NCBI GenBank assembly: GCA_001824255.1
Contig: MHWQ01000002.1
Coordinates: forward strand, 205,446 to 269,445
From: Candidatus Zambryskibacteria bacterium RIFCSPLOWO2_02_FULL_51_21
GTDB taxonomy: Bacteria; Patescibacteriota; Minisyncoccia; Phycocordibacterales; Zambryskibacteraceae
DNA: 64,000 nucleotides
Direction: 5' to 3'
The notes beneath the pieces were generated by a model. The model saw only the letters and a list, made by a program, of their open reading frames with translations. It was not told where the DNA came from and did not search any database. This document shows positions 2,954 to 44,512 of this stretch, one piece after another; position 1 is the stretch's first letter, and the number at the start of each line of letters is the position of its first letter. A program made the position numbers and the translations under genes.

Positions 2954-4053
2954 GAAGATTTTTGGGACTTTGAGATAGAGAGAACGACTCCGATTTCGAA
3001 CACACTCAGGAAAAGCGAGCTGCCGCCGTGCGATACGAAAGGCAGTGTAATACCTGAGAGCGGTATCACTCCGAGCATGGCGCCGATATTGACGAATGCC
3101 TGGGAGATAATCATTATAACAATCCCCGCCGCCGTCAGTCTACCGAAGACGTCCGGCACATTGCCCGCGATTTTGAGCCCTCTCACAGTAAAAAGGGTGA
3201 ATATGGCGATGAGCAAGACCGAACCCACGAAGCCGAATTCTTCCGCCGCCACGGCGAATATCGAATCGCCCACCGGTTCGGGAAGGTAGGTGAATTTCTG
3301 CACGCTCTGGCCGAAGCCCTTGCCGAACAGTTTCCCTGAGCCAATGGCGATGAGCGACTGCTGGATCTGATAGCCAGAACCGAGAGCGTCCGAAGTGGGA
3401 TTGAGGAAGGTGGTGATTCTCTGCATGACGTAGGGCCGGGTGAAGGCGAGGAAGGTGATGCCCGCGAGGCCGGCCAGGGCTATCACGGCTATATGCCGCC
3501 AGCGCCCGCCGGCAGCCACGAACATGCCGAGTCCCGTCGCCACGATAACCATGAAGTTGTCCGTGTCCGGCTGCTTCAGGAGAAGCGCCCCGCAGAGACC
3601 GAGCAAAACAATAAGCGGCAGAAGGCCGCCGGAAAAAGTTTTGATTTTCTCCTTCGCCCCCGCAGCCCAGGCGGCAAAATAAATTATGAAAGCGAATTTG
3701 AGCGCTTCAGACGGCTGGAACGAGAGCTCTCCAACCCTAAGCCAACGCCTGGCTCCTCCGTGTTCGAAGCCGATGGAAGGAATAAGAACCAGAATATTGA
3801 GGACGACGGCGATAACCAGGAGATAGAAGGCCCATTTCTTCCAAACTTTGTAATCGAGCCGGGCGGCCAGAATCATGGCAATCGAACCAAGGAAGAGCCC
3901 GAGCACTGTCTGCGAGAAGGCGACGCTTGAATAGTTGGAAGTCTCCTTGGCTAGGAGCCCGAGCGAGGCGGAAGAGAAGATGAAGAAGCCTGCCACTATC
4001 AAAATCACGGTAATGATTAGAAATGTTTTGTCCGCTCTCATGCCGCGCGCCAT
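2950..4053 (-). CDS. ftsW: SEDS family peptidoglycan polymerase FtsW/RodA
   Basis: 10-TM SEDS-like protein between murG and mraY. Confidence 0.8.
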   Translation of the reverse strand: MARGMRADKTFLIITVILIVAGFFIFSSASLGLLAKETSNYSSVAFSQTVLGLFLGSIAMILAARLDYKVWKKWAFYLLVIAVVLNILVLIPSIGFEHGGARRWLRVGELSFQPSEALKFAFIIYFAAWAAGAKEKIKTFSGGLLPLIVLLGLCGALLLKQPDTDNFMVIVATGLGMFVAAGGRWRHIAVIALAGLAGITFLAFTRPYVMQRITTFLNPTSDALGSGYQIQQSLIAIGSGKLFGKGFGQSVQKFTYLPEPVGDSIFAVAAEEFGFVGSVLLIAIFTLFTVRGLKIAGNVPDVFGRLTAAGIVIMIISQAFVNIGAMLGVIPLSGITLPFVSHGGSSLFLSVFEIGVVLSISKSQKSS

Positions 4054-4101
4054 ATAGAAAAAGATTATAGCATTTATAGACGCGGAACTGCCGTATCAAT
4101 A

Positions 4102-5154
4102 CTACTCTTGAACCCTGTTGTCGGCGTCGAAAGCAATGAAGGAAGTTTCAAGGGCCCGGGTCTGGGAGACGTAGCCGTTGGTGATATGGAGAGCGAGGAT
4201 GACAGCCATGACCACCGCGCCGTTCAAGATGAGGTCGGGATGCTGGTGCTTAATTTTGATGAAGATATTGAAAAGGAGTGCCAGCGTGATGATGCCCAAA
4301 ACGCTATAGAGCATGGCGTCCGTCGCCTGGCGGGGCGAAGCGGCTGCTTCTTTGAAAAATTCCTTGACCGCGTTCTGGGTAACGCGATTAGTGCTCGGAG
4401 ATTTGACTTGAGCTTCGCCGAGAACGTTTGCGGGTTCAGGCGAAGGCGGAGCGTTATTGAGCGAAATCTGGCCATGCTCGCTGGCGGACGAAAGCATGCT
4501 TTCGTCTGAAGATTTCGAGATAGAACGTTCCGCCGCAGCTACTACTGCCGGCCTACCGTAAACCTGCGCCACGAAGACCGTCTGGTTGCCTTTGTAAACT
4601 CCGGTGGCGATGCCGGTGCCCATCTCGGTATAAGCGCCTTTAATTATATTGGCACGGTGTGTCGGAGAATTCATCCAGGCCTCTGTCACGTCCGCCGAAT
4701 CAATGAAATTAACCGCCAGATTTTCTCCGGCATAGACATAAGAATATCCCGCTTTTTGGAACCAGTACCAGGGAGTCTTCCCTTCCGGAGAGGTGTGGGC
4801 GAAGTATGCGTTCCTCGCCATGTCTTCGGCCTTGAGACGCGCTGCTTCATCCAGAAGGGGATTTTCCCTTAGTTCCGGCAAATTATTTTCCAGACGCTCG
4901 GCGTTGGTGAGTGCCGAGAGAACGCCCGGAAGCACCGCCGTGACATTCAGAGTTTGGAGAAAACTGACGAAATTGAGTCCCGGCAGGACAAAGAGTATCA
5001 GCTCGAAGAATAGGATTACGCCTATAAGCTGAGCCGCGTTTTTGCGGTGAAGAATATGGGGCCTATGACCATTTCCCTCGTGCGGTATGAAGTGCTTTTT
5101 GAGCCACTTTTTCATAATTTTATAATGCAGTAAAACCAGCTTAAAGTCAATCAA
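4102..5154 (-). CDS. Membrane-anchored CAP (SCP/PR-1-like) domain protein
   Basis: N-terminal TM, C-terminal CAP domain motifs (GENLA..., HRANI..., YTEMGTG). Confidence 0.65.
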   Translation of the reverse strand: MIDFKLVLLHYKIMKKWLKKHFIPHEGNGHRPHILHRKNAAQLIGVILFFELILFVLPGLNFVSFLQTLNVTAVLPGVLSALTNAERLENNLPELRENPLLDEAARLKAEDMARNAYFAHTSPEGKTPWYWFQKAGYSYVYAGENLAVNFIDSADVTEAWMNSPTHRANIIKGAYTEMGTGIATGVYKGNQTVFVAQVYGRPAVVAAAERSISKSSDESMLSSASEHGQISLNNAPPSPEPANVLGEAQVKSPSTNRVTQNAVKEFFKEAAASPRQATDAMLYSVLGIITLALLFNIFIKIKHQHPDLILNGAVVMAVILALHITNGYVSQTRALETSFIAFDADNRVQE

Positions 5155-30944: not shown

Positions 30945-32204
30945 CTAGACTGGAAGATTGGCCGGCGCTTCGGCCTTCTTGCTCGGTGCCCTCACAAGCG
31001 AAGGCGTGGTGGCGACTGAGCCGGGCAAATGGAAGAGGCTGGCCACTTCTTCGACGGTGAGTATGTAGGGTTCGGAAAAGAGATGGTAATGGAGCGGCCC
31101 GTGGTAGGCCCGGCGCTTGTAGGAGTCGATGAAACTTGTCAGCCGTTCGTTCTTCCTGATATCGTTCCAATCCTGCCATGAGTGCGTCAGGGCGAAGAAA
31201 ATTGGTTTGATGCCGTTTAGCATCGTGGCCGAACCGAACTGACGCATGGAACCGATGATGCCCATGCCGCGAGTCTTGTCGAACTCATCCTTGGGAGCGA
31301 TGTACATAAGGCGAATCATGGTGTCAAAGGCGAGCTTGCCGGCATTTCTCTGGATGGACGCGACAGTATCGGTCTGCGCCTTGGTCAAGTTAAGGAAACG
31401 GAAGGTCTGGGCTTCGCCTTCTTTCGGCTTGAGCAGAGATTCTTCCTCAACCATCTTTTCTATCTCCTTCTTGATACCGGCGCGCCAGTCCGGCTTGGCG
31501 ATGAGGCGGCCATAGAGATAACTCTCTTTGGCATGGGCGCGGATGAGAATCTGTATGCCGGCCACTTCGCCGGGCTTCAGCGTGCCCAGATATTCTATGA
31601 CCGGTGTTATGGGGTCGACAATCTTCGCTTGTTCTTCCTGGTCGCCGGCTTTTTTATCAAGTTCGAATTCAATGTAGGTCTTGATGGGATACGCGTCGGG
31701 TTTGACGAGACCGGTGTTGACGCCGAAGACTTTCACCTTCTCCGGGTCGTAACGCAGGTCTAGCGCGTAGTCCCTGACCTCGAAGACTTCCGCCTCCGGG
31801 TATTGGGCGTAAATTCTTGACTCGATGATTTTCTTCCACCTCGGGAAGGCCCAGATGAAGAATCTCACCTGCCCGCCGATGGAAACGATTTCGAGCGAGA
31901 ACCATTCGCGCATTTTGCCCTCCCAAAAAGCGTCGGCCGGAGTGGAAATGTTGGCGTTCTCCCAGATGCCCTGGAGCACGAGCTCCATGGCCGCCGGGGA
32001 CTTCGTCACCTCCTTCGGCAGTCTTATCTCGAGTAGAATCGAGCCCTGCTGGCTGACCCAGAGCCGGCGGATGTACCTGAGCCAGGTGGTCCAGGCGAGA
32101 CTTATGAGAATCAGCGGCACCCAGACCGGCCAAGCGGAGAAAAAGAAACCAATAGCCCGCGAGAGCACCTCCTGATTGAAAGGGTTGGCTAAGTCTTCGA
32201 ACAT
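30945..32204 (-). CDS. Conserved hypothetical membrane-associated protein (419 aa)
   Basis: ORF track; N-terminal TM pair then large soluble domain; tightly packed with mltG. Confidence 0.6.
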   Translation of the reverse strand: MFEDLANPFNQEVLSRAIGFFFSAWPVWVPLILISLAWTTWLRYIRRLWVSQQGSILLEIRLPKEVTKSPAAMELVLQGIWENANISTPADAFWEGKMREWFSLEIVSIGGQVRFFIWAFPRWKKIIESRIYAQYPEAEVFEVRDYALDLRYDPEKVKVFGVNTGLVKPDAYPIKTYIEFELDKKAGDQEEQAKIVDPITPVIEYLGTLKPGEVAGIQILIRAHAKESYLYGRLIAKPDWRAGIKKEIEKMVEEESLLKPKEGEAQTFRFLNLTKAQTDTVASIQRNAGKLAFDTMIRLMYIAPKDEFDKTRGMGIIGSMRQFGSATMLNGIKPIFFALTHSWQDWNDIRKNERLTSFIDSYKRRAYHGPLHYHLFSEPYILTVEEVASLFHLPGSVATTPSLVRAPSKKAEAPANLPV

Positions 32205-32225: not shown

Positions 32226-33260
32226 CTACACGTTTGAGTAGCGTCCGTCTTTGTCCTTCTTGAAATATTTGGAATTCTGGAGGTTGACGAGGATGGTGTT
32301 CTCTTTGACATAGCGCTCCTTCAAAACTTTTTTGACTATTTCCTCGCGGCTAAGCGGGCCCTCCTTGGCAAGAATACTCTTGATGACATCCTTGACGACG
32401 CCCGACATATAACCCCACTCGGCAAGCGCATAGAGTCCGCGTCCAACGAGAACGAAACGCTTGTCCTTGATAAGCTCGTTGTGCGTGGTGGCGACGTGAG
32501 CCTTCTTGTTGAAATACTGGGTGATGGCCTTAGCCACTTCCTTGAAATGGATGGGCGAACCATGCTTCCTGATAACGAGGAAGGCATAGTCGCGCATACC
32601 CTTGGCATTGACGTTGGGAGAAGAGGCCCGGCCCCATTCGCCGAGAGGATTCTTGCCTATCTTATGCGAAATGCCGAGCCAGCGCTTGATAATCTCATCG
32701 TCCTTATACTTCTCGTTGAGGTCCTTCACCTCCTCGAGGAAAGAGGAAATGAGGTCGCCTTCGACCACGAGCTCGTCATCGGAAAGCTTGGCATAGAGTT
32801 TCCTCAAAGTATTCTGAATCTTATCAGCCAGCTGTTGGTCGACGTGCCAGCGGTGGCGGAATTCTTCGTCCTCCTTATCGCGCTTGAACTCCTCGCCGAT
32901 GATGAGAAGAAAGTGGTAATGATTCTGGGTTGAAGGCTCTTTGGCCAGATGTTTCAAGAGGTCTTTCTCTGACACAATGCCTCCCAACGCCGTGACGATA
33001 TCCTTGAGTTCGGCAAAGACGGCCTCAGCTTCCTTGTAGGACTTCGACTTCCTGATGGCAGCGATGGAATGGTTCTCAATCTGGCGGACGCGCTCGCGGG
33101 TGATGCCGTACTTCTTGCCGATGGCATCGAGAGTGAGCTTCTGAGCCTTGGCGCCCAGGCCGTAGCGAGAAACGATTACGTCCTGGCCGCGCTTGGTGAG
33201 AACCGACAAAAGTTTCTTGGTGGCTTCCTTGGGCTTAAAGCTGGTTGCTATCTTTTCCAT
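32226..33260 (-). CDS. Protein with N-terminal sigma-70 region-4-like HTH followed by about 250 aa uncharacterised domain
   Basis: Region 4 signature (LTLDAIGKKYGITRERVRQIENHSIAAIRK) at N-terminus, not C-terminus. Confidence 0.6.
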   Translation of the reverse strand: MEKIATSFKPKEATKKLLSVLTKRGQDVIVSRYGLGAKAQKLTLDAIGKKYGITRERVRQIENHSIAAIRKSKSYKEAEAVFAELKDIVTALGGIVSEKDLLKHLAKEPSTQNHYHFLLIIGEEFKRDKEDEEFRHRWHVDQQLADKIQNTLRKLYAKLSDDELVVEGDLISSFLEEVKDLNEKYKDDEIIKRWLGISHKIGKNPLGEWGRASSPNVNAKGMRDYAFLVIRKHGSPIHFKEVAKAITQYFNKKAHVATTHNELIKDKRFVLVGRGLYALAEWGYMSGVVKDVIKSILAKEGPLSREEIVKKVLKERYVKENTILVNLQNSKYFKKDKDGRYSNV

Positions 33261-33307: not shown

Positions 33308-36067
33308 TCAAGAAGTCACGATATTTACCAGTTTTCTAGGGACATAAATCCTATTCTTGACTGCCTTATCCCCAACCCACTTTTGCGTTTCGGGGAGATT
33401 CTCTGCAAGCTCGAAAGCTTCCGCCTCATCGAGCGCTCTCAGCGCTTCGAATTTGCCGCGCACGCGGCCGTTGACCTGAACCACAATTGTAACAACTTCG
33501 CTCACAAGCTTCGTTTCATCGTACCCGGGCCAGCTCTGTGAATGAATTGAATCGCTGTGTCCGAGCGAGTGCCACAACTCTTCCGCCATATGCGGCGCGA
33601 ATGGTGCTAAGAGCTTTAGTAATGTTTCGTATTCTTCTTTGGAGATTTTCTCTTTCTTCTCCAAATCATTTACAAAAATCATCAGGGTTGAAATCGCAGT
33701 ATTGAAACGCATGTGCTCGATATCGCCGGTCACCTTTTTTATCGTTTGATGAGCGGAAGATGAAACTTCATCGAGCGAAGTCTGGCCATGCTTGCCGGAG
33801 GCAACATCCGAAGACTTTGTGAGAGGAAGTTTCGTCTGAAGTCTCCATATTTTCTCCAAAAATCTCCGCGGCCCGACCAGAGAACTCTCACTCCAGGCAA
33901 TTGCCTGTTCGAAGGGGCCCATGAACATCTCGTAGAGGCGCAGAGTGTCGGCGCCGAAACGTTCAACGATAGAATCGGGATTTATGACATTGCCTTTCGA
34001 CTTACTCATCTTCTCTCCCCCTTCGGCCAAGATAAGCCCGTGAGAAGTGCGCTTCTTGTAGGGTTCACTTACGGGCACAAGGCCTATGTCATATAGAAAC
34101 TTATTCCAGAAACGGGAATAGAGAAGATGAAGAACTGTGTGCTCCATACCGCCGTTGTACCAGTCCACGGGCATGAAATATTTGAAATTTTCAATTTGCA
34201 ATTTCCAATTTTCAGTAGAAACCGGATTCTCAAATCCTTTCTTATCGAATAGGTAGGCGAGAAAATACCAGGAGGAGCCGGCCCAATTGGGCATAGTATC
34301 TGTCTCGCGCTTGGCAGGACCGTCGCATTTCGGGCAAGTTATATTGACCCACTCATCTATCGCCGCGAGCGGCGACTCGCCGGTGTCGGTGGGCATATAA
34401 TTCTTTACCTCTGGGAGAAGGACCGGCAAATCTTTCTCCGGCACGGGCACTATGCCGCATTTATCGCAGTGCACAACCGGAATCGGTTCACCCCAGTATC
34501 TCTGCCTCGAGAAAACCCAATCACGAAGTTTGTATTTGACGACCTTCTTGCCGAATTTCTCCGTAATTTTCTCTCTGGCTTCTCCCGATTCAAGACCATC
34601 GAATTCATTGGAATTCGCAATGATTCCTTCTCCTGTATAGAAATCTTTGCCAGTCTCAATACGCTGTCTGATAATTTCTATTTCCGAGTGATTTATACGA
34701 ATAGTTTTGAATTCCTCTTTGGATATCCATTCGACTTCATGCTTTTCAAGCTCTTCTTCTGTTACGGTTTGACGGGCATTACTCTTTAATTCAAAAAACA
34801 GCAAGACATCATGAGCGATGCGATTAACTCCTTTATGAGCTGCATAAAATTCCGCTTGAGTATCCCCGCCAAGCCTTCTAATTAATTCGATATCTGTGTA
34901 TCCGGTTTCTTCCGTTATTTCTCTCTTGGCCGATTCTACGGCATTCTCTCCTTCTTCTATGCCTCCTGTTACAAAAGTTCTCCATGGAACTTTTTTCCAT
35001 TTCAGAGTGAGATACTTCTCCGTTTTTGGATCATAAACAATGCTTAAGGTGACTTTTCGCGCCACAATATCTTTGCCGTTTTGATGCGGATTGGTGGAAT
35101 CCGGCAGGCGCGGCGTTATCACGTGCTTAATCGGCAAATCGTGCTTCTTGGCGAACTCATAGTCGCGCTCGTCGTGCGCGGGCACCCCCATAATGGCTCC
35201 GGTGCCGTAGTCGAAGTAAACATATTCCGCTTCCCAGACGGGAATTTTTTCCCTGGTCGCGGGATTAATTGCGTAATCTCCAGTAAATTTGTCTTCTTTA
35301 CCCGCCTTGACCAAGAAAGTAGCACCGAAGATTGTGTCCGGCCGAGTCGTGAATACTTCTATATCATCAAATTTGATAAGCGCGCCTTCCGACTTCCCTA
35401 TCCAGTTCTTCTGCTGAACTTTGACCCGCTCCGGATAATCCACGGTGTCGAGGTCAGCCAGAAGTTTGTCGGCATACTTAGTGATGGCGAGCATCCATTG
35501 CTCTTTTTCCCGCTGTTCCACCGGCGTGCCACAGCGCTCGCACTTGCCGTCCACCACTTCTTCGTTGGCGAGGCCAATCTTATCCTTCGGACACCAGTTG
35601 ATGGGAATCTTCGCCTTGTACGCGAGTCCATGCTCAAGAAACTTCAAGAAGAGCCATTGAGTCCATTTGTAATACTTGGGGTCAGTCGTGTTAATCTCGC
35701 GCGACCAGTCGAAGGAGATGCCGAGCGACTGAATCTGCCTGCGAAAAGTGTCTGTGTTTTCCTTCGTAATTTCTGCGGGCGGACGGCCTGTTTTGATAGC
35801 GTAATTCTCCGTCGGCAAACCGAAAGCGTCCCAGCCGATGGGATAGAGTACATTCTTGCCTTCCATCCTTTTCTTCCTCGCAATGATATCCATGCCGATG
35901 TACGGGCGAGGATGTCCCACATGAAGACCGTCTCCGGATGGATACGGAAATTCTATAAGCGCGTAATATTTTTGCTTAGAAGAATTATCTTCTGCATTGT
36001 ATAGGCCATCTTTCTCCCATTCCTTCTGCCACTTAGACTCTATCTGTTTCGGGTCGTATTCTGTCAT
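33308..36067 (-). CDS. leuS: Leucine--tRNA ligase with reduced CP1/editing region and an inserted Nudix hydrolase domain
   Basis: HVGH and KMSKS motifs; TTRPDT...GTGA spacing only about 45 aa; canonical Nudix box GGIEEGENAVESAKREITEETGY at aa 368-390. Confidence 0.85.
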   Translation of the reverse strand: MTEYDPKQIESKWQKEWEKDGLYNAEDNSSKQKYYALIEFPYPSGDGLHVGHPRPYIGMDIIARKKRMEGKNVLYPIGWDAFGLPTENYAIKTGRPPAEITKENTDTFRRQIQSLGISFDWSREINTTDPKYYKWTQWLFLKFLEHGLAYKAKIPINWCPKDKIGLANEEVVDGKCERCGTPVEQREKEQWMLAITKYADKLLADLDTVDYPERVKVQQKNWIGKSEGALIKFDDIEVFTTRPDTIFGATFLVKAGKEDKFTGDYAINPATREKIPVWEAEYVYFDYGTGAIMGVPAHDERDYEFAKKHDLPIKHVITPRLPDSTNPHQNGKDIVARKVTLSIVYDPKTEKYLTLKWKKVPWRTFVTGGIEEGENAVESAKREITEETGYTDIELIRRLGGDTQAEFYAAHKGVNRIAHDVLLFFELKSNARQTVTEEELEKHEVEWISKEEFKTIRINHSEIEIIRQRIETGKDFYTGEGIIANSNEFDGLESGEAREKITEKFGKKVVKYKLRDWVFSRQRYWGEPIPVVHCDKCGIVPVPEKDLPVLLPEVKNYMPTDTGESPLAAIDEWVNITCPKCDGPAKRETDTMPNWAGSSWYFLAYLFDKKGFENPVSTENWKLQIENFKYFMPVDWYNGGMEHTVLHLLYSRFWNKFLYDIGLVPVSEPYKKRTSHGLILAEGGEKMSKSKGNVINPDSIVERFGADTLRLYEMFMGPFEQAIAWSESSLVGPRRFLEKIWRLQTKLPLTKSSDVASGKHGQTSLDEVSSSAHQTIKKVTGDIEHMRFNTAISTLMIFVNDLEKKEKISKEEYETLLKLLAPFAPHMAEELWHSLGHSDSIHSQSWPGYDETKLVSEVVTIVVQVNGRVRGKFEALRALDEAEAFELAENLPETQKWVGDKAVKNRIYVPRKLVNIVTS

Positions 36068-36596
36068 TGAATTTTTTCATCGCTATCCAGAAGAGGATGC
36101 TCAGCGCGATGGCGAGTATTACAACTCTCGCCCAATTGTCCGCCGAGCCCCAGTAGCGCACGGATGCGACGAGAAATGAGAGAAGACCTGCAAGCGAGAG
36201 ACCGCCCGTGATCACTGTATTACCTGCGAAGAAGTTGCCTGCCGCTACCGAGAACGCACCGAGCACCACGAGCACTATGAAGACATTTCTGTTGTAACTT
36301 TTGTTAGCCGCGTCAAACTCTTGTCGGCAAGAGTACTGTAGGTCGCAATAACCGCGCGGTTCTGTAAATCCGGCCGGGACGGGCTTGCCATATCCGGGAT
36401 TGGTCGTCCACTGGCCACCTTGTGCTACACAAGTACTCTGAGTCTCGGGAATATTCACCACTTGTTCGCTCTTGCAGAAGTTCTCGTACTGGGGGCTCTT
36501 GTAAGCGAGCGAGAGCGCATAGTTGAAGAAGAGATTGAGCACAATCATGATGCCCAAAATGACCGACCAGCGCCCGATGCGATTGGATGTATTCAT
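36033..36596 (-). CDS. Small integral membrane protein, hypothetical
   Basis: ORF track; 3-4 TM helices, Cys/Tyr-rich loop. Confidence 0.55.
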   Translation of the reverse strand: MNTSNRIGRWSVILGIMIVLNLFFNYALSLAYKSPQYENFCKSEQVVNIPETQSTCVAQGGQWTTNPGYGKPVPAGFTEPRGYCDLQYSCRQEFDAANKSYNRNVFIVLVVLGAFSVAAGNFFAGNTVITGGLSLAGLLSFLVASVRYWGSADNWARVVILAIALSILFWIAMKKFNDRIRPETDRV

Positions 36597-43195: not shown

Positions 43196-43252
43196 GCAAG
43201 GCGTGTCATGACTCTGCTTTCGCAGAAGCATGACACGCCTTGATTTATTTTG
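43196..43252 (+). terminator. Rho-independent terminator after sulfatase-like gene
   Basis: AAGGCGUGUCAUG...CAUGACACGCCUU stem with structured loop, then AUUUAUUUUGG. Confidence 0.7.
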
Positions 43253-43324
43253 GTGGACCTAGGCGGAATCGGACCGCCGTTTCGGCAATGCGAATGCCGT
43301 GTTCTGCCACTAAACTATAGGCCC
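43251..43324 (-). tRNA. tRNA-Ala (anticodon CGC), CCA encoded
   Basis: Manual cloverleaf: acceptor GGGCCUA/UAGGUCC with G3:U70, D-loop AGUGGCA, anticodon loop UUCGCAU, T-stem GGCGG/CCGCC; T-loop UCCGAUU has C at position 55; 5' end overlaps DedA stop codon. Confidence 0.6.
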
Positions 43325-43905
43325 TTTTTCCCCTTAAAATATTGGATAACCGGCGGAATCAAGGATACCACAACGATAAGCCCCACGATAGGCAAAACAT
43401 AGCGGTCCGCATCGGGAATCGACTGGCCGAAGAAATATCCCGCCGAGGTAAGGCCGACCGCCCAGATAAGAGCCCCGAAGAAGTTATAGAAAGTAAAAAT
43501 TTTGTACTTCATCTCCCCCACTCCGGCCATTACGGGGATAAAAGTGCGCACTATTGGAACGAAGCGTGCGAGCACTATCGCTTTCTTGCCATGCTGGTCG
43601 AAAAAGCTCCTGGTCTTCTCGATATTTTCCGGGCTGAACCAGAATGATTTGGGCCGAGAGAAAATTCTTGGGCCGATTTTCCTTCCAATCCAGTAACCGG
43701 TCGCGTCTCCGGCAAAAGCCGCGAGGAAAAACATGGGCAAGAGAAACTCTATGCGCAAGTACCCCTGCGACGCGAGAAATCCGGCGGTGAAAAGAAGCGA
43801 ATCCCCCGGCAGGAAAAAACCGACGAATATGCCCGATTCGGCATAAATGATGCCGAAAAGGCCGAGATATCCGGCTGTTTGAATCAAAGAGACGAGGTCG
43901 AACAT
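43315..43905 (-). CDS. DedA/SNARE-associated (TVP38/TMEM64) family membrane protein
   Basis: DedA signature region (GIFVGFFLPGDSLLFTAG...), multiple TM. Confidence 0.75.
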   Translation of the reverse strand: MFDLVSLIQTAGYLGLFGIIYAESGIFVGFFLPGDSLLFTAGFLASQGYLRIEFLLPMFFLAAFAGDATGYWIGRKIGPRIFSRPKSFWFSPENIEKTRSFFDQHGKKAIVLARFVPIVRTFIPVMAGVGEMKYKIFTFYNFFGALIWAVGLTSAGYFFGQSIPDADRYVLPIVGLIVVVSLIPPVIQYFKGKKGL

Positions 43906-43928
43906 TGACCCACTATATCATCGAAATA

Positions 43929-44189
43929 TTATTCGAGGAAAACCTGCGCGCCCTCCTTGGCTCTCTGCGAGAGCTTCACCGCCGCGTCGGCTCCTTTCTT
44001 CGCCTTATCCGCGTCGGCGTGGTCAATCTGGAGGGAGGAAACAGTCTCTTCGAACTCCTCATCCCCTTTCTTTATCTTTATCCTGTCGCCCTTCCCGAGC
44101 GGACCGGTGAGCTTTATCACGGCTACGCCGATCTTGTCGTACCAATGGGTAACGGTGCCTATCTGCTTGGCCATGCCTGTATTATACAC
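43929..44189 (-). CDS. Small hypothetical protein (about 81-86 aa), beta-rich N-terminal half and Lys/Ala-rich tail
   Basis: ORF track; likely start at internal MAKQIG (44174) with TATAAT 7 nt upstream (possibly leaderless). Confidence 0.5.
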   Translation of the reverse strand: MYNTGMAKQIGTVTHWYDKIGVAVIKLTGPLGKGDRIKIKKGDEEFEETVSSLQIDHADADKAKKGADAAVKLSQRAKEGAQVFLE

Positions 44190-44206
44190 CCGGGAGAATA
44201 TACCAG

Positions 44207-44280
44207 TGGACGATACAGGATTCGAACCTGTGACCTTACGAATGTGAATCGTACGCTCTAACCAGCTGAGCTAATCGTCC
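44207..44280 (-). tRNA. tRNA-Val (anticodon CAC)
   Basis: Canonical cloverleaf: GGACGAU/AUCGUCC acceptor, D-arm GCUC-AGCUGGUUA-GAGC, anticodon loop UUCACAU, T-arm ACAGG-UUCGAAU-CCUGU. Confidence 0.85.
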
Positions 44281-44284
44281 CTTG

Positions 44285-44355
44285 TGGACCCACGGGGAGT
44301 CGCACCCCGGACTCGTCCATGCCATGGACGCGTGTTACTGCTATACCATGGGCCC
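44285..44355 (-). tRNA. tRNA-Ala-like (anticodon GGC), degenerate D-arm and T-loop; possibly pseudo-tRNA
   Basis: Acceptor GGGCCCA/UGGGUCC with G3:U70, anticodon stem CGUCC/GGACG, loop AUGGCAU; T-loop UGCGACU (G55) and weak D-stem. Confidence 0.4.
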
Positions 44356-44410
44356 ATTTGCGGCTTTATTTTGCTTCATTTTTAAGATAGAATCAAGTTC
44401 GTTACTTTTC

Positions 44411-44435
44411 AAAAATGAGCCCCCGGCTCATTTTT
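44411..44435. terminator. Bidirectional terminator-like element AAAAA-UGAGCC-CCC-GGCUCA-UUUUU abutting tRNA-Ala(TGC) 5' end
   Basis: 6 bp stem, 3 nt loop, symmetric A and T runs. Confidence 0.5.
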
Positions 44436-44508
44436 GGGCCCTTAGCTTAGTTGGTAGAGCGCCTCATTTGCAATGAGGAGGTCAGCGGTTCGAATCCGCT
44501 AGGGTCCA
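44436..44508 (+). tRNA. tRNA-Ala (anticodon TGC)
   Basis: GGGCCCU/AGGGUCC acceptor with G3:U70, D-arm GCUU-AGUUGGUA-GAGC, anticodon loop UUUGCAA, T-arm AGCGG-UUCGAAU-CCGCU. Confidence 0.85.
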
Positions 44509-44512
44509 CAAA

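Follow-up and report, generated by a model that had tools for sequence, protein, structure and literature searches.

A predicted Nudix hydrolase domain inserted in the CP1 editing domain of a Patescibacteria leucyl-tRNA synthetase

Leucyl-tRNA synthetase (LeuRS) hydrolyses mischarged products in its CP1 domain, a drug target and one of the most thoroughly studied proofreading domains. Bacterial aminoacyl-tRNA synthetases are regarded as enzymes of well-catalogued architecture, and it is unexpected for CP1 to have another, unrelated hydrolase folded into it. The leuS gene of the window analysed here, a 64-kb stretch of Candidatus Zambryskibacteria DNA, encodes such a protein and raises the question of whether the additional domain has taken over editing or was added to an editing-competent enzyme, and which reaction it might catalyse. 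The features of the gene, all on the minus strand, are as follows (Tt, Thermus thermophilus LeuRS numbering).

33308..36067, minus strand: leuS, complete coding sequence of a bacterial-type LeuRS, 919 aa, a single ORF with the stop codon at 33308-33310
35426..36067, minus strand: N-terminal half of the Rossmann catalytic domain and Zn module, aa 1-214 (PF00133 at aa 12-223; aligns with Tt 1-~220)
35912-35923, minus strand: HVGH, aa 49-52 (motif search)
35117..35425, minus strand: CP1 editing domain, N-terminal part, aa 215-317 (PF13603; alignments to Tt LeuRS and A. aeolicus CP1)
35333-35350, minus strand: TTRPDT, aa 240-245, within CP1
35189-35206, minus strand: GTGAIM, from aa 288, within CP1
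35162-35179, minus strand: AHDERD, within CP1
34628..35116, minus strand: inserted Nudix hydrolase domain, aa 318-480 (PF00293, AlphaFold2, Foldseek, and the alignment break against a Nudix-less locus)
34898..34966, minus strand: Nudix box GGIEEGENAVESAKREITEETGY, aa 368-390, catalytic metal-binding motif (exact match to the regular expression GX5EX7REUXEEXGU)
34517..34627, minus strand: CP1 editing domain, C-terminal part, aa 481-517, GEGIIANSNEFDGL... (aligns with Tt 377-417 and A. aeolicus CP1 ~160-190)
33833..34516, minus strand: second half of the catalytic domain, aa 518-745 (aligned to Tt 418-581 and from 637 onward)
33998-34012, minus strand: KMSKS, aa 686-690 (motif search)
33311..33832, minus strand: anticodon-binding and C-terminal tRNA-binding domains, aa 746-919 (PF08264 at aa 769-876; aligns with Tt up to 876)

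The whole protein scored 946.2 bits with the bacterial LeuRS model TIGR00396 (leuS_bact; equivalog cutoff 548.4), phmmer matched it to T. thermophilus LeuRS (PDB: 1h3n, E=2e-207), and Foldseek matched the full-length model to LeuRS structures (E~1e-73). It shares with the T. thermophilus and Escherichia coli enzymes the domain order of a Rossmann domain bearing the HIGH and KMSKS motifs, a Zn module, CP1 at the bacterial position, and the anticodon-binding and C-terminal domains, and is 36% identical to T. thermophilus LeuRS over the structure alignment. Both class I signature motifs are present (HVGH and KMSKS), and together with the anticodon-binding and C-terminal domains they agree with the original prediction, made from the DNA alone, that the gene is otherwise intact. 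In the T. thermophilus and family alignments, the leucine-specific domain that precedes KMSKS (Tt 582-636) has no counterpart, and the tetrapeptide EGGE bridges the gap. A published study describes the same arrangement in the functional LeuRS of Mycoplasma mobile (PDB: 3ziu), where the tetrapeptide GKDG replaces this domain (PMC3643597); because that enzyme works without one, the leucine-specific domain does not strictly define a LeuRS. Both enzymes are remodelled and come from small-genome organisms, but M. mobile LeuRS (637 aa) lacks any CP1, whereas the protein studied here keeps the CP1 core and gains a domain. A closer parallel to the Mycoplasma enzyme is offered by sibling Zambryskibacteria forms of ~730 aa, from which the C-terminal piece of CP1 is missing.

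The insert occupies a CP1 loop after the PIKHVI strand (IKHVI, aa 313-317), between the positions of Tt residues 363 and 377. Its central part (aa 341-463) significantly matches the PF00293 NUDIX model (E=5e-12; 46.4 bits, cutoff 21.1). Modelled alone, the insert folds confidently (AlphaFold2 pLDDT 94.6, pTM 0.87), and Foldseek links the model with a probability of 1.0 to more than 400 Nudix chains; the Nudix fold accounts for the whole insert. GGIEEGENAVESAKREITEETGY is the sole Nudix box in any frame of the window. The original prediction had placed a Nudix insert at aa 318-480 after IKHVI, with a textbook box at nt 34898-34966; its coordinates proved exact, as did the match of the box to the consensus. 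We rejected an intein or homing endonuclease as the explanation of the insert, because no intein/Hint or homing-endonuclease (LAGLIDADG/HNH) Pfam family matched the 919-aa protein at E<=1. We are thus highly confident that this protein has the anatomy of a LeuRS with a complete Nudix lobe carried in frame in a surface loop of CP1.

The original prediction had further proposed that most of CP1, and with it hydrolytic editing, was lost. The first part is incorrect: all three of the motifs TTRPDT, GTGAIM and AHDERD belong to CP1, and this protein has them in conserved form. The short gap between TTRPDT and GTGA that had suggested the loss is real (42 residues), but the canonical spacing is ~80 residues, as in T. 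thermophilus LeuRS, and not ~190. The LeuRS editing-domain model PF13603 scores 146.1 bits (cutoff 25) in three stretches, split by the insert and by a deletion. That deletion is a variable CP1 sub-segment of ~40 aa (Tt ~260-302), which is missing relative to the T. thermophilus, E. coli and Aquifex aeolicus enzymes and is all that the alignments show to be missing from CP1; ~136 aa (aa 219-317 and 481-517) remain of a complete domain of ~190 aa. Among relatives, the sub-segment is absent in the clade of this protein, half-length in P0060 and P0096, and present in P0035, P0043 and P0051. The C-terminal part of CP1 restarts directly past the insert and is conserved in alignments across the LeuRS family. 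When aa 320-474 are deleted in silico, CP1 aligns unbroken across the junction to Tt 303-430 and to residues 88-190 of the A. aeolicus CP1 crystal construct; because the domain is contiguous once the insert is removed, the Nudix domain is an addition within CP1 and not a substitute for editing. Residues T240, T241, R242, D244, T245, G288, H298, D299, R301 and D302 are invariant or near-invariant in 53 relatives, and D299 and D302 are the equivalents of Tt D344 and D347. In the full-length model, the CP1 and Nudix region (aa 201-520) has a pLDDT of 81-96. From alignments and model, the CP1 editing core is predicted to be intact but trimmed, with its catalytic motifs retained. The proposed loss of hydrolytic editing is unsupported, as the core is present, conserved and confidently folded in the model.

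To find out how widespread the insertion is, we relied for family counts on an exhaustive profile search, since a homology search with the insert alone was too insensitive (five matches). The profile search returned 160 clusters at E<=1e-30, in which the long host proteins are nearly all LeuRS. A Nudix domain at the same site (site B) occurs in 62 of the 120 closest LeuRS, so that the same insertion is widespread in related genomes, and 77 of the 80 best species-genome loci place the domain within LeuRS ORFs. Members of the family are present in hundreds of LeuRS from Patescibacteria. They occupy at least three insertion sites, and a single protein can have as many as three of them; sites A and B are in CP1, and site C is in the catalytic core. 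Five further proteins (P0236 and P0276-P0279) are class II prolyl-tRNA synthetases (ProRS) of DPANN archaea that carry the same Nudix family in the linker between the anticodon-binding and C-terminal domains. The family also exists as stand-alone genes. Their genomic surroundings, which we inspected for hints of function, differ from one locus to another: gmk-adk-map-ndk in L003, pth and hisS in L045, and unrelated genes in L001 and L037. We found no description of a LeuRS with an embedded Nudix domain in the searchable literature, which agrees with the original prediction, to whose author no such description was known; an apparent co-mention of IleRS and Nudix was dismissed as a reference-list entry only. 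LeuRS-Nudix is thus an architecture undescribed in the searchable literature that recurs in hundreds of CPR/Patescibacteria genomes. It is unexpected that the copy number and position of a hydrolase vary across so widespread a lineage, that an archaeal class II synthetase carries this family as well, and that sibling alleles lack both the Nudix domain and part of CP1. These observations raise the testable questions of which nucleotide a synthetase-tethered Nudix domain hydrolyses, whether CPR bacteria tolerate an editing-reduced LeuRS, and how whole domains enter and leave essential genes by recombination.

The catalytic residues of the family are well conserved. In the 62 site-B inserts of the closest LeuRS, E383 and E387 are invariant (62/62 each), and E386 (60/62), R382 (57/62) and E374 (55/62) nearly so. 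All three metal-binding Glu are kept in 224 of 238 Nudix copies and all five box residues in 128 of 152 site-B copies, and R20, K95, N98, R99 and W130, residues of a basic and aromatic signature specific to the family, are each kept in 218-235 of the 238. Judging from these patterns, the Nudix domain is probably an active hydrolase.

The best profile and structural neighbours of the insert are Ap4A hydrolases and RppH (NudH) enzymes (1f3y, 3i7u, 4s2w/7sp3 and CT771), with which it shares the canonical fold and box. Its best PDB profile match is the Ap4A hydrolase of a plant, lupin (1f3y, 2.9e-7), and the nearest folds in Foldseek include E. coli RppH (one structure with bound Ap4A), the Aquifex Ap4A hydrolase 3i7u, DR1025 and CT771, although these structural matches reach a TM-score of only 0.6-0.66 at 13-21% identity. 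The conserved basic residues suit a polyphosphate chain, and an aromatic pair (F/Y-Y/F; F407 and Y408 here) lies 17-18 residues past the box, in the part of the sequence where ApnA hydrolases have a marker Tyr. A published summary of Dunn et al. (1999) assigns this conserved Tyr to the X-loop, which follows the box (PMC5389931). Our profile alignment to human NUDT2, an Ap4A hydrolase, stops after the box, short of the marker-Tyr region. The insert differs from these free-standing enzymes in being embedded in a synthetase and in having a signature of its own (R20, W40, W45, K95, N98, R99 and W130), and it falls below every curated family cutoff. The NCBIfam models for RppH, NudB and NudI score far below their cutoffs and assign no substrate significantly, with RppH (NF001936) the best-scoring named Nudix model at 25.4 bits against an equivalog cutoff of 118; the PHROGs, PADLOC and NCBIfam curated models gave only generic or sub-threshold matches with respect to substrate.

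As the best overall explanation, to which we assign a probability of roughly 45%, we propose that the protein combines an intact LeuRS with a catalytically competent Nudix lobe. The gene product would, with the same tentative standing, be a working bacterial-type LeuRS, and the lobe would act autonomously on a small nucleotide substrate, with no part in leucylation or editing. The likeliest substrates would be dinucleoside polyphosphates (Ap4A, Ap3A or Np4N), which arise as side products of adenylate-forming synthetases, or closely related nucleoside polyphosphates; an NpnN-type compound is a tentative suggestion that we consider less likely than not. LeuRS is not known as a prominent producer of Ap4A. 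It is well established that Ap4N comes mainly from synthetases (PMC7705103). Tethering would put the degrading enzyme at a site where NpnN compounds arise, and its dosage would follow that of an essential gene, constitutively expressed in a minimal genome. A parallel may be drawn with NadM-Nudix, an NMN adenylyltransferase fused to an ADP-ribose pyrophosphatase, in which an adenylate-forming enzyme is likewise covalently joined to a Nudix domain acting on a related nucleotide. NadM-Nudix, however, is an end-to-end fusion with a known metabolic logic, whereas the Nudix domain of LeuRS is inserted within a domain and at several alternative sites.

Alternatively, the Nudix domain may be a self-contained housekeeping enzyme that lodged repeatedly and in frame in permissive surface loops of LeuRS and DPANN ProRS and is spread and lost by homologous recombination between alleles, with the host providing expression only and no link to aminoacylation. 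The multiple insertion sites and copies are consistent with such a mobile passenger, as is the divergence between the Nudix copies of one protein, which share only 19-45% identity; the nearest relatives of some site-A copies are site-B copies in other proteins, and those of site-C copies are stand-alone genes. Identity between hosts does not correlate with identity between their inserts (Spearman -0.07, 1,275 pairs). Near-identical LeuRS alleles exist with and without the Nudix domain, and on this sequence evidence the module is dispensable. The hosts P0022 and P0121 are 98.8% identical with the central block swapped and mismatches clustered at the block edges, although a strain-level assembly chimera could also account for the P0121 allele. 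No Nudix domain is present at locus L085, which is orthologous and syntenic, and the nucleotide alignment to it breaks at window positions 34571-35129. At least 17 gains or losses are required on a host-only tree, which is a neighbour-joining tree without bootstrap support. The GC3 of the insert is 0.356 against 0.578 in the rest of the gene, a difference that persists after controlling for amino-acid composition, and 62 of 75 genomes show a lower value for the insert; however, we downgraded this dip as a sign of recent horizontal transfer, and it may reflect weak constraint and not foreign origin, because diverged relatives share it and other variable LeuRS segments are also low in GC3. Other lineages have unrelated hydrolases at these LeuRS sites (HAD, an alpha/beta serine hydrolase and a DUF559 nuclease), so permissive loops that collect passengers fit as well as a specific coupling. 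Against this account, nearly all hosts in the best 150 representatives are LeuRS, joined by ProRS, a pattern not expected of a random passenger; strong purifying selection acts on the catalytic residues and on those of the family signature; and the protein lacks any intein, Hint or homing-endonuclease domain. We consider it possible but on balance unlikely.

A module on CP1 that resembles RppH and removes 5'-triphosphates or Np4N/NAD caps from precursors of tRNA(Leu), or from other RNAs encountering the synthetase, would draw on several of the same similarities: E. coli RppH is a top structural neighbour and its model the highest-scoring named one, there are weak matches to Dcp2 and Nudt16-like models, CP1 contacts the tRNA acceptor end, and a stand-alone member lies near hisS and overlaps pth at its 3' end. 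The RppH score is nevertheless far from its cutoff, and the insertion sites vary between CP1, the catalytic core and the ProRS linker, so there is no fixed geometry of the Nudix domain relative to the tRNA. Moreover, RNase P leaves 5'-monophosphates on mature tRNAs. Such a decapping role seems distinctly improbable. The idea in the original prediction that the Nudix domain replaces a lost CP1 activity by hydrolysing mis-activated aminoacyl-adenylates, as pre-transfer proofreading, could appeal to the position of the insert in the editing domain and to the missing CP1 sub-segment and leucine-specific domain. The alignments have largely refuted it already, as the CP1 motifs are in place and the domain folds in the prediction. 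Relatives with a full-length sub-segment (P0035, P0043 and P0051) also carry Nudix, and the genuinely truncated CP1 forms of ~730 aa are those without it. Gain and loss of the module and its occurrence in ProRS and as stand-alone genes also disfavour this role, and aminoacyl-AMP, a carboxylic-phosphoric anhydride without the P-O-P bond that Nudix enzymes cleave, would be an untypical substrate; we regard it as highly improbable. Hardly more credible is a non-catalytic lobe that regulates LeuRS on binding a nucleotide signal, such as ADP-ribose or (p)ppGpp, or that serves as a scaffold for protein contacts. Nudix domains without an enzymatic role are a recognised class (PMC5389931), boxes are degenerate in P0015, P0021, P0030, P0037 and many second copies, and only 14 of 27 site-A copies have a fully intact box. 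Yet the protein studied here, like most site-B copies, keeps all five box residues, and the retention of the three Glu throughout most of the family is hard to explain without catalysis.

Elements of the preferred intact-LeuRS reading and of recombination-borne spread may also be combined. An in-frame domain cassette carried by recombination could have specifically colonised synthetases of ultra-small symbionts (LeuRS in CPR, ProRS in DPANN) and been retained for destroying a nucleotide by-product or signal formed at the synthetase, such as Ap4A, Np4N or Np4N-capped RNA, a scenario that we regard as speculative and rather unlikely. If true, it would be the first known case in which a single polypeptide physically couples the synthesis of an alarmone to its degradation, and translation enzymes would have a modular accessory of a new kind. 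Many proteins of the LeuRS-Nudix kind are named by NCBI only as "class I tRNA ligase family protein", and the finding therefore bears on annotation as well.

The leuS gene is a single open reading frame for a bacterial-type leucyl-tRNA synthetase (LeuRS), which scores 946 bits against TIGR00396 (cutoff 548), matches T. thermophilus LeuRS with E = 2e-207 in phmmer, and carries the Pfam domains tRNA-synt_1, PF13603 (LeuRS editing domain, 146 bits), Anticodon_1, and PF00293 (NUDIX). Its full-length AlphaFold model matches LeuRS structures at E ~1e-73. Every motif position in the original prediction proved exact when re-located in the protein, and the Nudix box is the sole one across all frames of the 64-kb window.

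Window 33308-36067, reverse strand: leuS, 919 aa
aa 49-52: HVGH
aa 240-245: TTRPDT
aa 288: GTGA
aa 313-317: IKHVI
aa 318-480 (nt 34628-35116): Nudix insert
aa 368-390 (nt 34898-34966): Nudix box, GGIEEGENAVESAKREITEETGY
aa 686-690: KMSKS

The insert is a genuine Nudix domain, as had been predicted: PF00293 matches aa 341-463 with E = 5e-12 and 46.4 bits against a threshold of 21.1, and residues 318-480 modeled alone form a Nudix fold (pLDDT 94.6, pTM 0.87). Among solved structures, it is closest to an E. faecalis MutT/Nudix protein, several E. coli RppH entries (one in complex with Ap4A), Aquifex Ap4A hydrolase, DR1025, and CT771, at TM scores of 0.6-0.66 and identities of 13-21%. A profile of the Nudix family best matched lupin Ap4A hydrolase (2.9e-7), followed by AvrM14, NudB, Dcp2, DIPP, and ADP-ribose pyrophosphatases. 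Curated models of RppH, NudB, and NudI scored far under their cutoffs on the query, and PHROGs and PADLOC scans returned generic Nudix matches only. Fold and catalytic motif are therefore certain, whereas the substrate class is not.

The original prediction also held that the protein had lost most of the CP1 editing domain, and with it editing, and this did not survive alignment. Alignment to T. thermophilus LeuRS (Tt) pairs query residues 1 to ~255 with Tt 1 to ~260, 258-318 with 303-363, 477-683 with 377-581, and 686-918 with 637-876. CP1 (Tt 224-417) contains both TTRPDT and GTGAIM, which lie ~80 residues apart in Tt, not ~190; the query has no counterpart to a ~40-aa sub-segment (Tt ~260-302), which leaves 42 residues between the motifs. 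After in silico deletion of residues 320-474, the rest of CP1 aligns continuously over the junction, both with Tt 303-430 and with residues 88-190 of the crystallized A. aeolicus CP1 construct; the query shows a gap of only 8-10 residues, in the insert-bearing loop. Across 53 relatives, the editing-site residues T240, T241, R242, D244, T245, G288, H298, D299, R301, and D302 show no or almost no variation, and mean pLDDT is 81-96 in each 10-residue block of aa 201-520 of the full-length model. Together with the match to LeuRS structures, this establishes that the protein keeps an editing core under constraint. Only the peripheral sub-segment of CP1 and the leucine-specific domain (Tt 582-636, where the query has EGGE) are lacking; M. 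mobile LeuRS likewise has a tetrapeptide where that domain would be (PMC3643597). The sub-segment varies within the family: the homologues P0035, P0043, and P0051 have it at full length, P0060 and P0096 at half length, and the query clade not at all, and every one of these has the Nudix domain. The apparent absence of the sub-segment from A. aeolicus CP1 was rejected as an alignment artefact.

The Nudix module is widespread. Among the 120 closest LeuRS, 62 have a ~160-aa insert at the site used in the query, with Nudix-box residues E383 and E387 kept in 62/62, E386 in 60/62, R382 in 57/62, and E374 in 55/62. Searching 1.84 billion representatives exhaustively with a profile gave 160 clusters at E <= 1e-30; within the best 150, the long proteins are nearly all LeuRS or LeuRS fragments, and ~35 are stand-alone Nudix proteins of 150-200 aa. 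The domain occupies at least three LeuRS sites (query numbering):

Site A, ~q207-235: start of CP1
Site B, q317/481: site used in the query
Site C, ~q577-587: Zn-module region

Up to three copies occur per LeuRS, and multi-copy proteins usually pair one intact box with one degenerate box. The three metal-binding Glu are kept in 224 of 238 copies, and a signature outside the box (R20, K95, N98, R99, W130, and an aromatic pair at +17/+18) is conserved better still. We found one non-LeuRS host type, an archaeal-type class II prolyl-tRNA synthetase (ProRS; P0236) with the Nudix domain between its anticodon-binding and C-terminal domains. Four further ProRS clusters (P0276-P0279) share this architecture; the five ProRS are 641-674 aa long, and their Nudix-less siblings carry the names Nanoarchaeota or Woesearchaeota. 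The boxes of P0236 and the related fragments P0255, P0262, and P0192 keep the three Glu but have K or D in place of R, and most of them also have D or N in place of E7.

At one genome per species, at least 203 loci encode relatives; of the best 80, 77 sit within LeuRS ORFs. Patescibacteria (Saccharibacteria, Parcubacteria/Paceibacterota, Taylorbacteria, Berkelbacteria, Moraniibacteriota, and Adlerbacteria) account for most, and a few belong to MAGs with the labels Bacilli, Bacillota, or Tenericutes. The MAG titles of LeuRS-Nudix loci L051, L069, L071, L074, L077, L078, L079, and L082, and of L043 and L067, read Bacilli, Bacillota, Clostridia, Tenericutes, Woesearchaeota, and Methanosarcinales; such titles may reflect real spread outside Patescibacteria or else mis-binning or mis-labelling.

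Host identity does not correlate with insert identity (Spearman -0.07, 1,275 LeuRS pairs), and at ~77% host identity insert identity spans 34% to 78%. Copies from the same protein share only 19-45% identity; the nearest match of some site-A copies is a site-B copy from another protein, and that of site-C copies is a stand-alone gene. At least 17 presence/absence changes are needed on a host-only neighbor-joining tree, computed without bootstrap. The host closest to the query, P0017 (87%), has no Nudix domain; its locus, L085, keeps synteny with the window (~81% nucleotide identity), and the alignment breaks at window 34571-35129. The most telling pair is P0022, which has the Nudix domain (915 aa), and P0121, which lacks it (734 aa): the two share 98.8% identity, and 15 of the 19 differences between them cluster within ~12 residues of the borders of the indel, at which P0121 has a junction typical of short LeuRS forms. 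This pattern is the signature of central-block exchange through homologous recombination, barring a strain-level assembly chimera.

Those short forms, ~55 close relatives of ~720-740 aa (including P0033, P0039-P0041, P0044, P0089, and P0114), several of them named Zambryskibacteria, lack both the Nudix domain and the C-terminal CP1 piece (YTGEGxLxNSxEFDGL...). Most also have AHD changed to ADD adjoining the editing Asp. They may be naturally editing-impaired LeuRS, comparable to the Mycoplasma cases.

GC3 is 0.356 in the insert and 0.578 in the rest of leuS (z = -4.9 to -6.7 with amino-acid composition controlled); window-wide codon usage predicts ~0.6. The edges of the dip are sharp (~aa 331-480), and of 75 other genomes, 62 likewise have a lower GC3 in the insert than in its host. 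Because diverged relatives (P0007 and P0011) have the dip too and other variable LeuRS segments are likewise low, the dip is ambiguous and may stem from weak constraint, foreign origin, or translation pacing.

These results show a LeuRS that is intact, CP1 core included, and that bears on a separate lobe an autonomous Nudix active site kept by selection. We suggest that this lobe would act as a pyrophosphohydrolase independently of leucylation and editing, with dinucleoside polyphosphates or related nucleoside polyphosphates as our preferred candidate substrates. We favor these substrates because Ap4N is established to originate from synthetases (PMC7705103), because the family is linked with a pair of unrelated synthetases, because its nearest relatives include Ap4A hydrolases as well as RppH, and because it has conserved basic and aromatic residues in the region where ApnA hydrolases hold a marker Tyr (PMC5389931), to which the aromatic residues may correspond.

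The main rival to this pyrophosphohydrolase reading is that the domain is a passenger or cassette with no functional coupling to aminoacylation, which is strengthened because unrelated domains (HAD, alpha/beta serine-hydrolase, and DUF559 nuclease) occupy the same LeuRS sites in other lineages; the family's ties to two synthetases and its conserved signature speak against it. Less likely is an RppH-like function at RNA 5' ends: RppH is among the structural neighbors, but its curated model scores far under the cutoff. A non-catalytic sensor is also less likely; the degenerate boxes of multi-copy proteins favor it, and the near-universal metal-binding Glu speak against it. Less likely, too, is the original proposal that the Nudix domain replaces editing by hydrolyzing adenylates, against which stands the retained editing core.

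Public databases already hold many LeuRS-Nudix sequences with automatic Pfam labels, often under the NCBI name 'class I tRNA ligase family protein' only. Our literature searches found no paper describing the architecture, and synthetases go unmentioned in a comprehensive review of the Nudix clan (PMC5389931). The architecture is a LeuRS, or in DPANN archaea a ProRS, with an embedded, variably positioned Nudix hydrolase module; the oddity first noticed stands and is broader than one sequence could reveal, while its headline of lost editing falls.

Other CPR LeuRS carry further in-frame domains at the same sites, namely a serine or alpha/beta hydrolase, a HAD phosphatase, or a DUF559 (Vsr-like) nuclease (P0056 aa 750-905, P0123 aa 442-598, P0139 aa 653-808, P0015 aa 268-372, and P0029 aa 447-548), and reach 1,073-1,336 aa. 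In Candidatus Taylorbacteria (L014, PLXZ01000004.1), the LeuRS match lies in a stop-to-stop open frame of 1,735 aa with Nudix at aa 255-406 and large stretches without assignment.

Two genes follow leuS in the window:

32226-33260, reverse strand: 344-aa protein with sigma-70 region 4 and HARE-HTH domains, immediately downstream of leuS
30945-32204, reverse strand: 419-aa ORF without a Pfam match, next in order; its L085 counterpart matches PF26449 (DUF8128)

The order YchF, membrane protein, leuS, 344-aa protein, 419-aa ORF is kept in loci L085, L087, and L088. L085 has an extra 126-aa gene (3601-3981) directly upstream of leuS encoding PF05635, a 23S_rRNA_IVP four-helix-bundle protein; the window lacks this gene at the corresponding place (~36033-36100), and there the start of leuS and the 187-aa ORF upstream of it (36033-36596) share 35 nt. 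The 64-kb window has no tRNA-Leu. It has a tight tRNA cluster (43251-44509) with tRNA-Ala isoacceptors CGC, GGC, and TGC, the last on the opposite strand, and tRNA-Val(CAC). Stand-alone Nudix genes occur in other contexts. At L045 one (ORF 3938-4480) overlaps the 3' end of a peptidyl-tRNA hydrolase gene (3397-3978) on the same strand, with hisS close by on the opposite strand, a translation-related setting. At L003 (1170-5356) the stand-alone homologue P0001 lies in a nucleotide-metabolism cluster in the order guanylate kinase, adenylate kinase, Met aminopeptidase, second Nudix, NDK, unknown gene, and P0001, with an RHH/YafQ-like toxin-antitoxin pair upstream.
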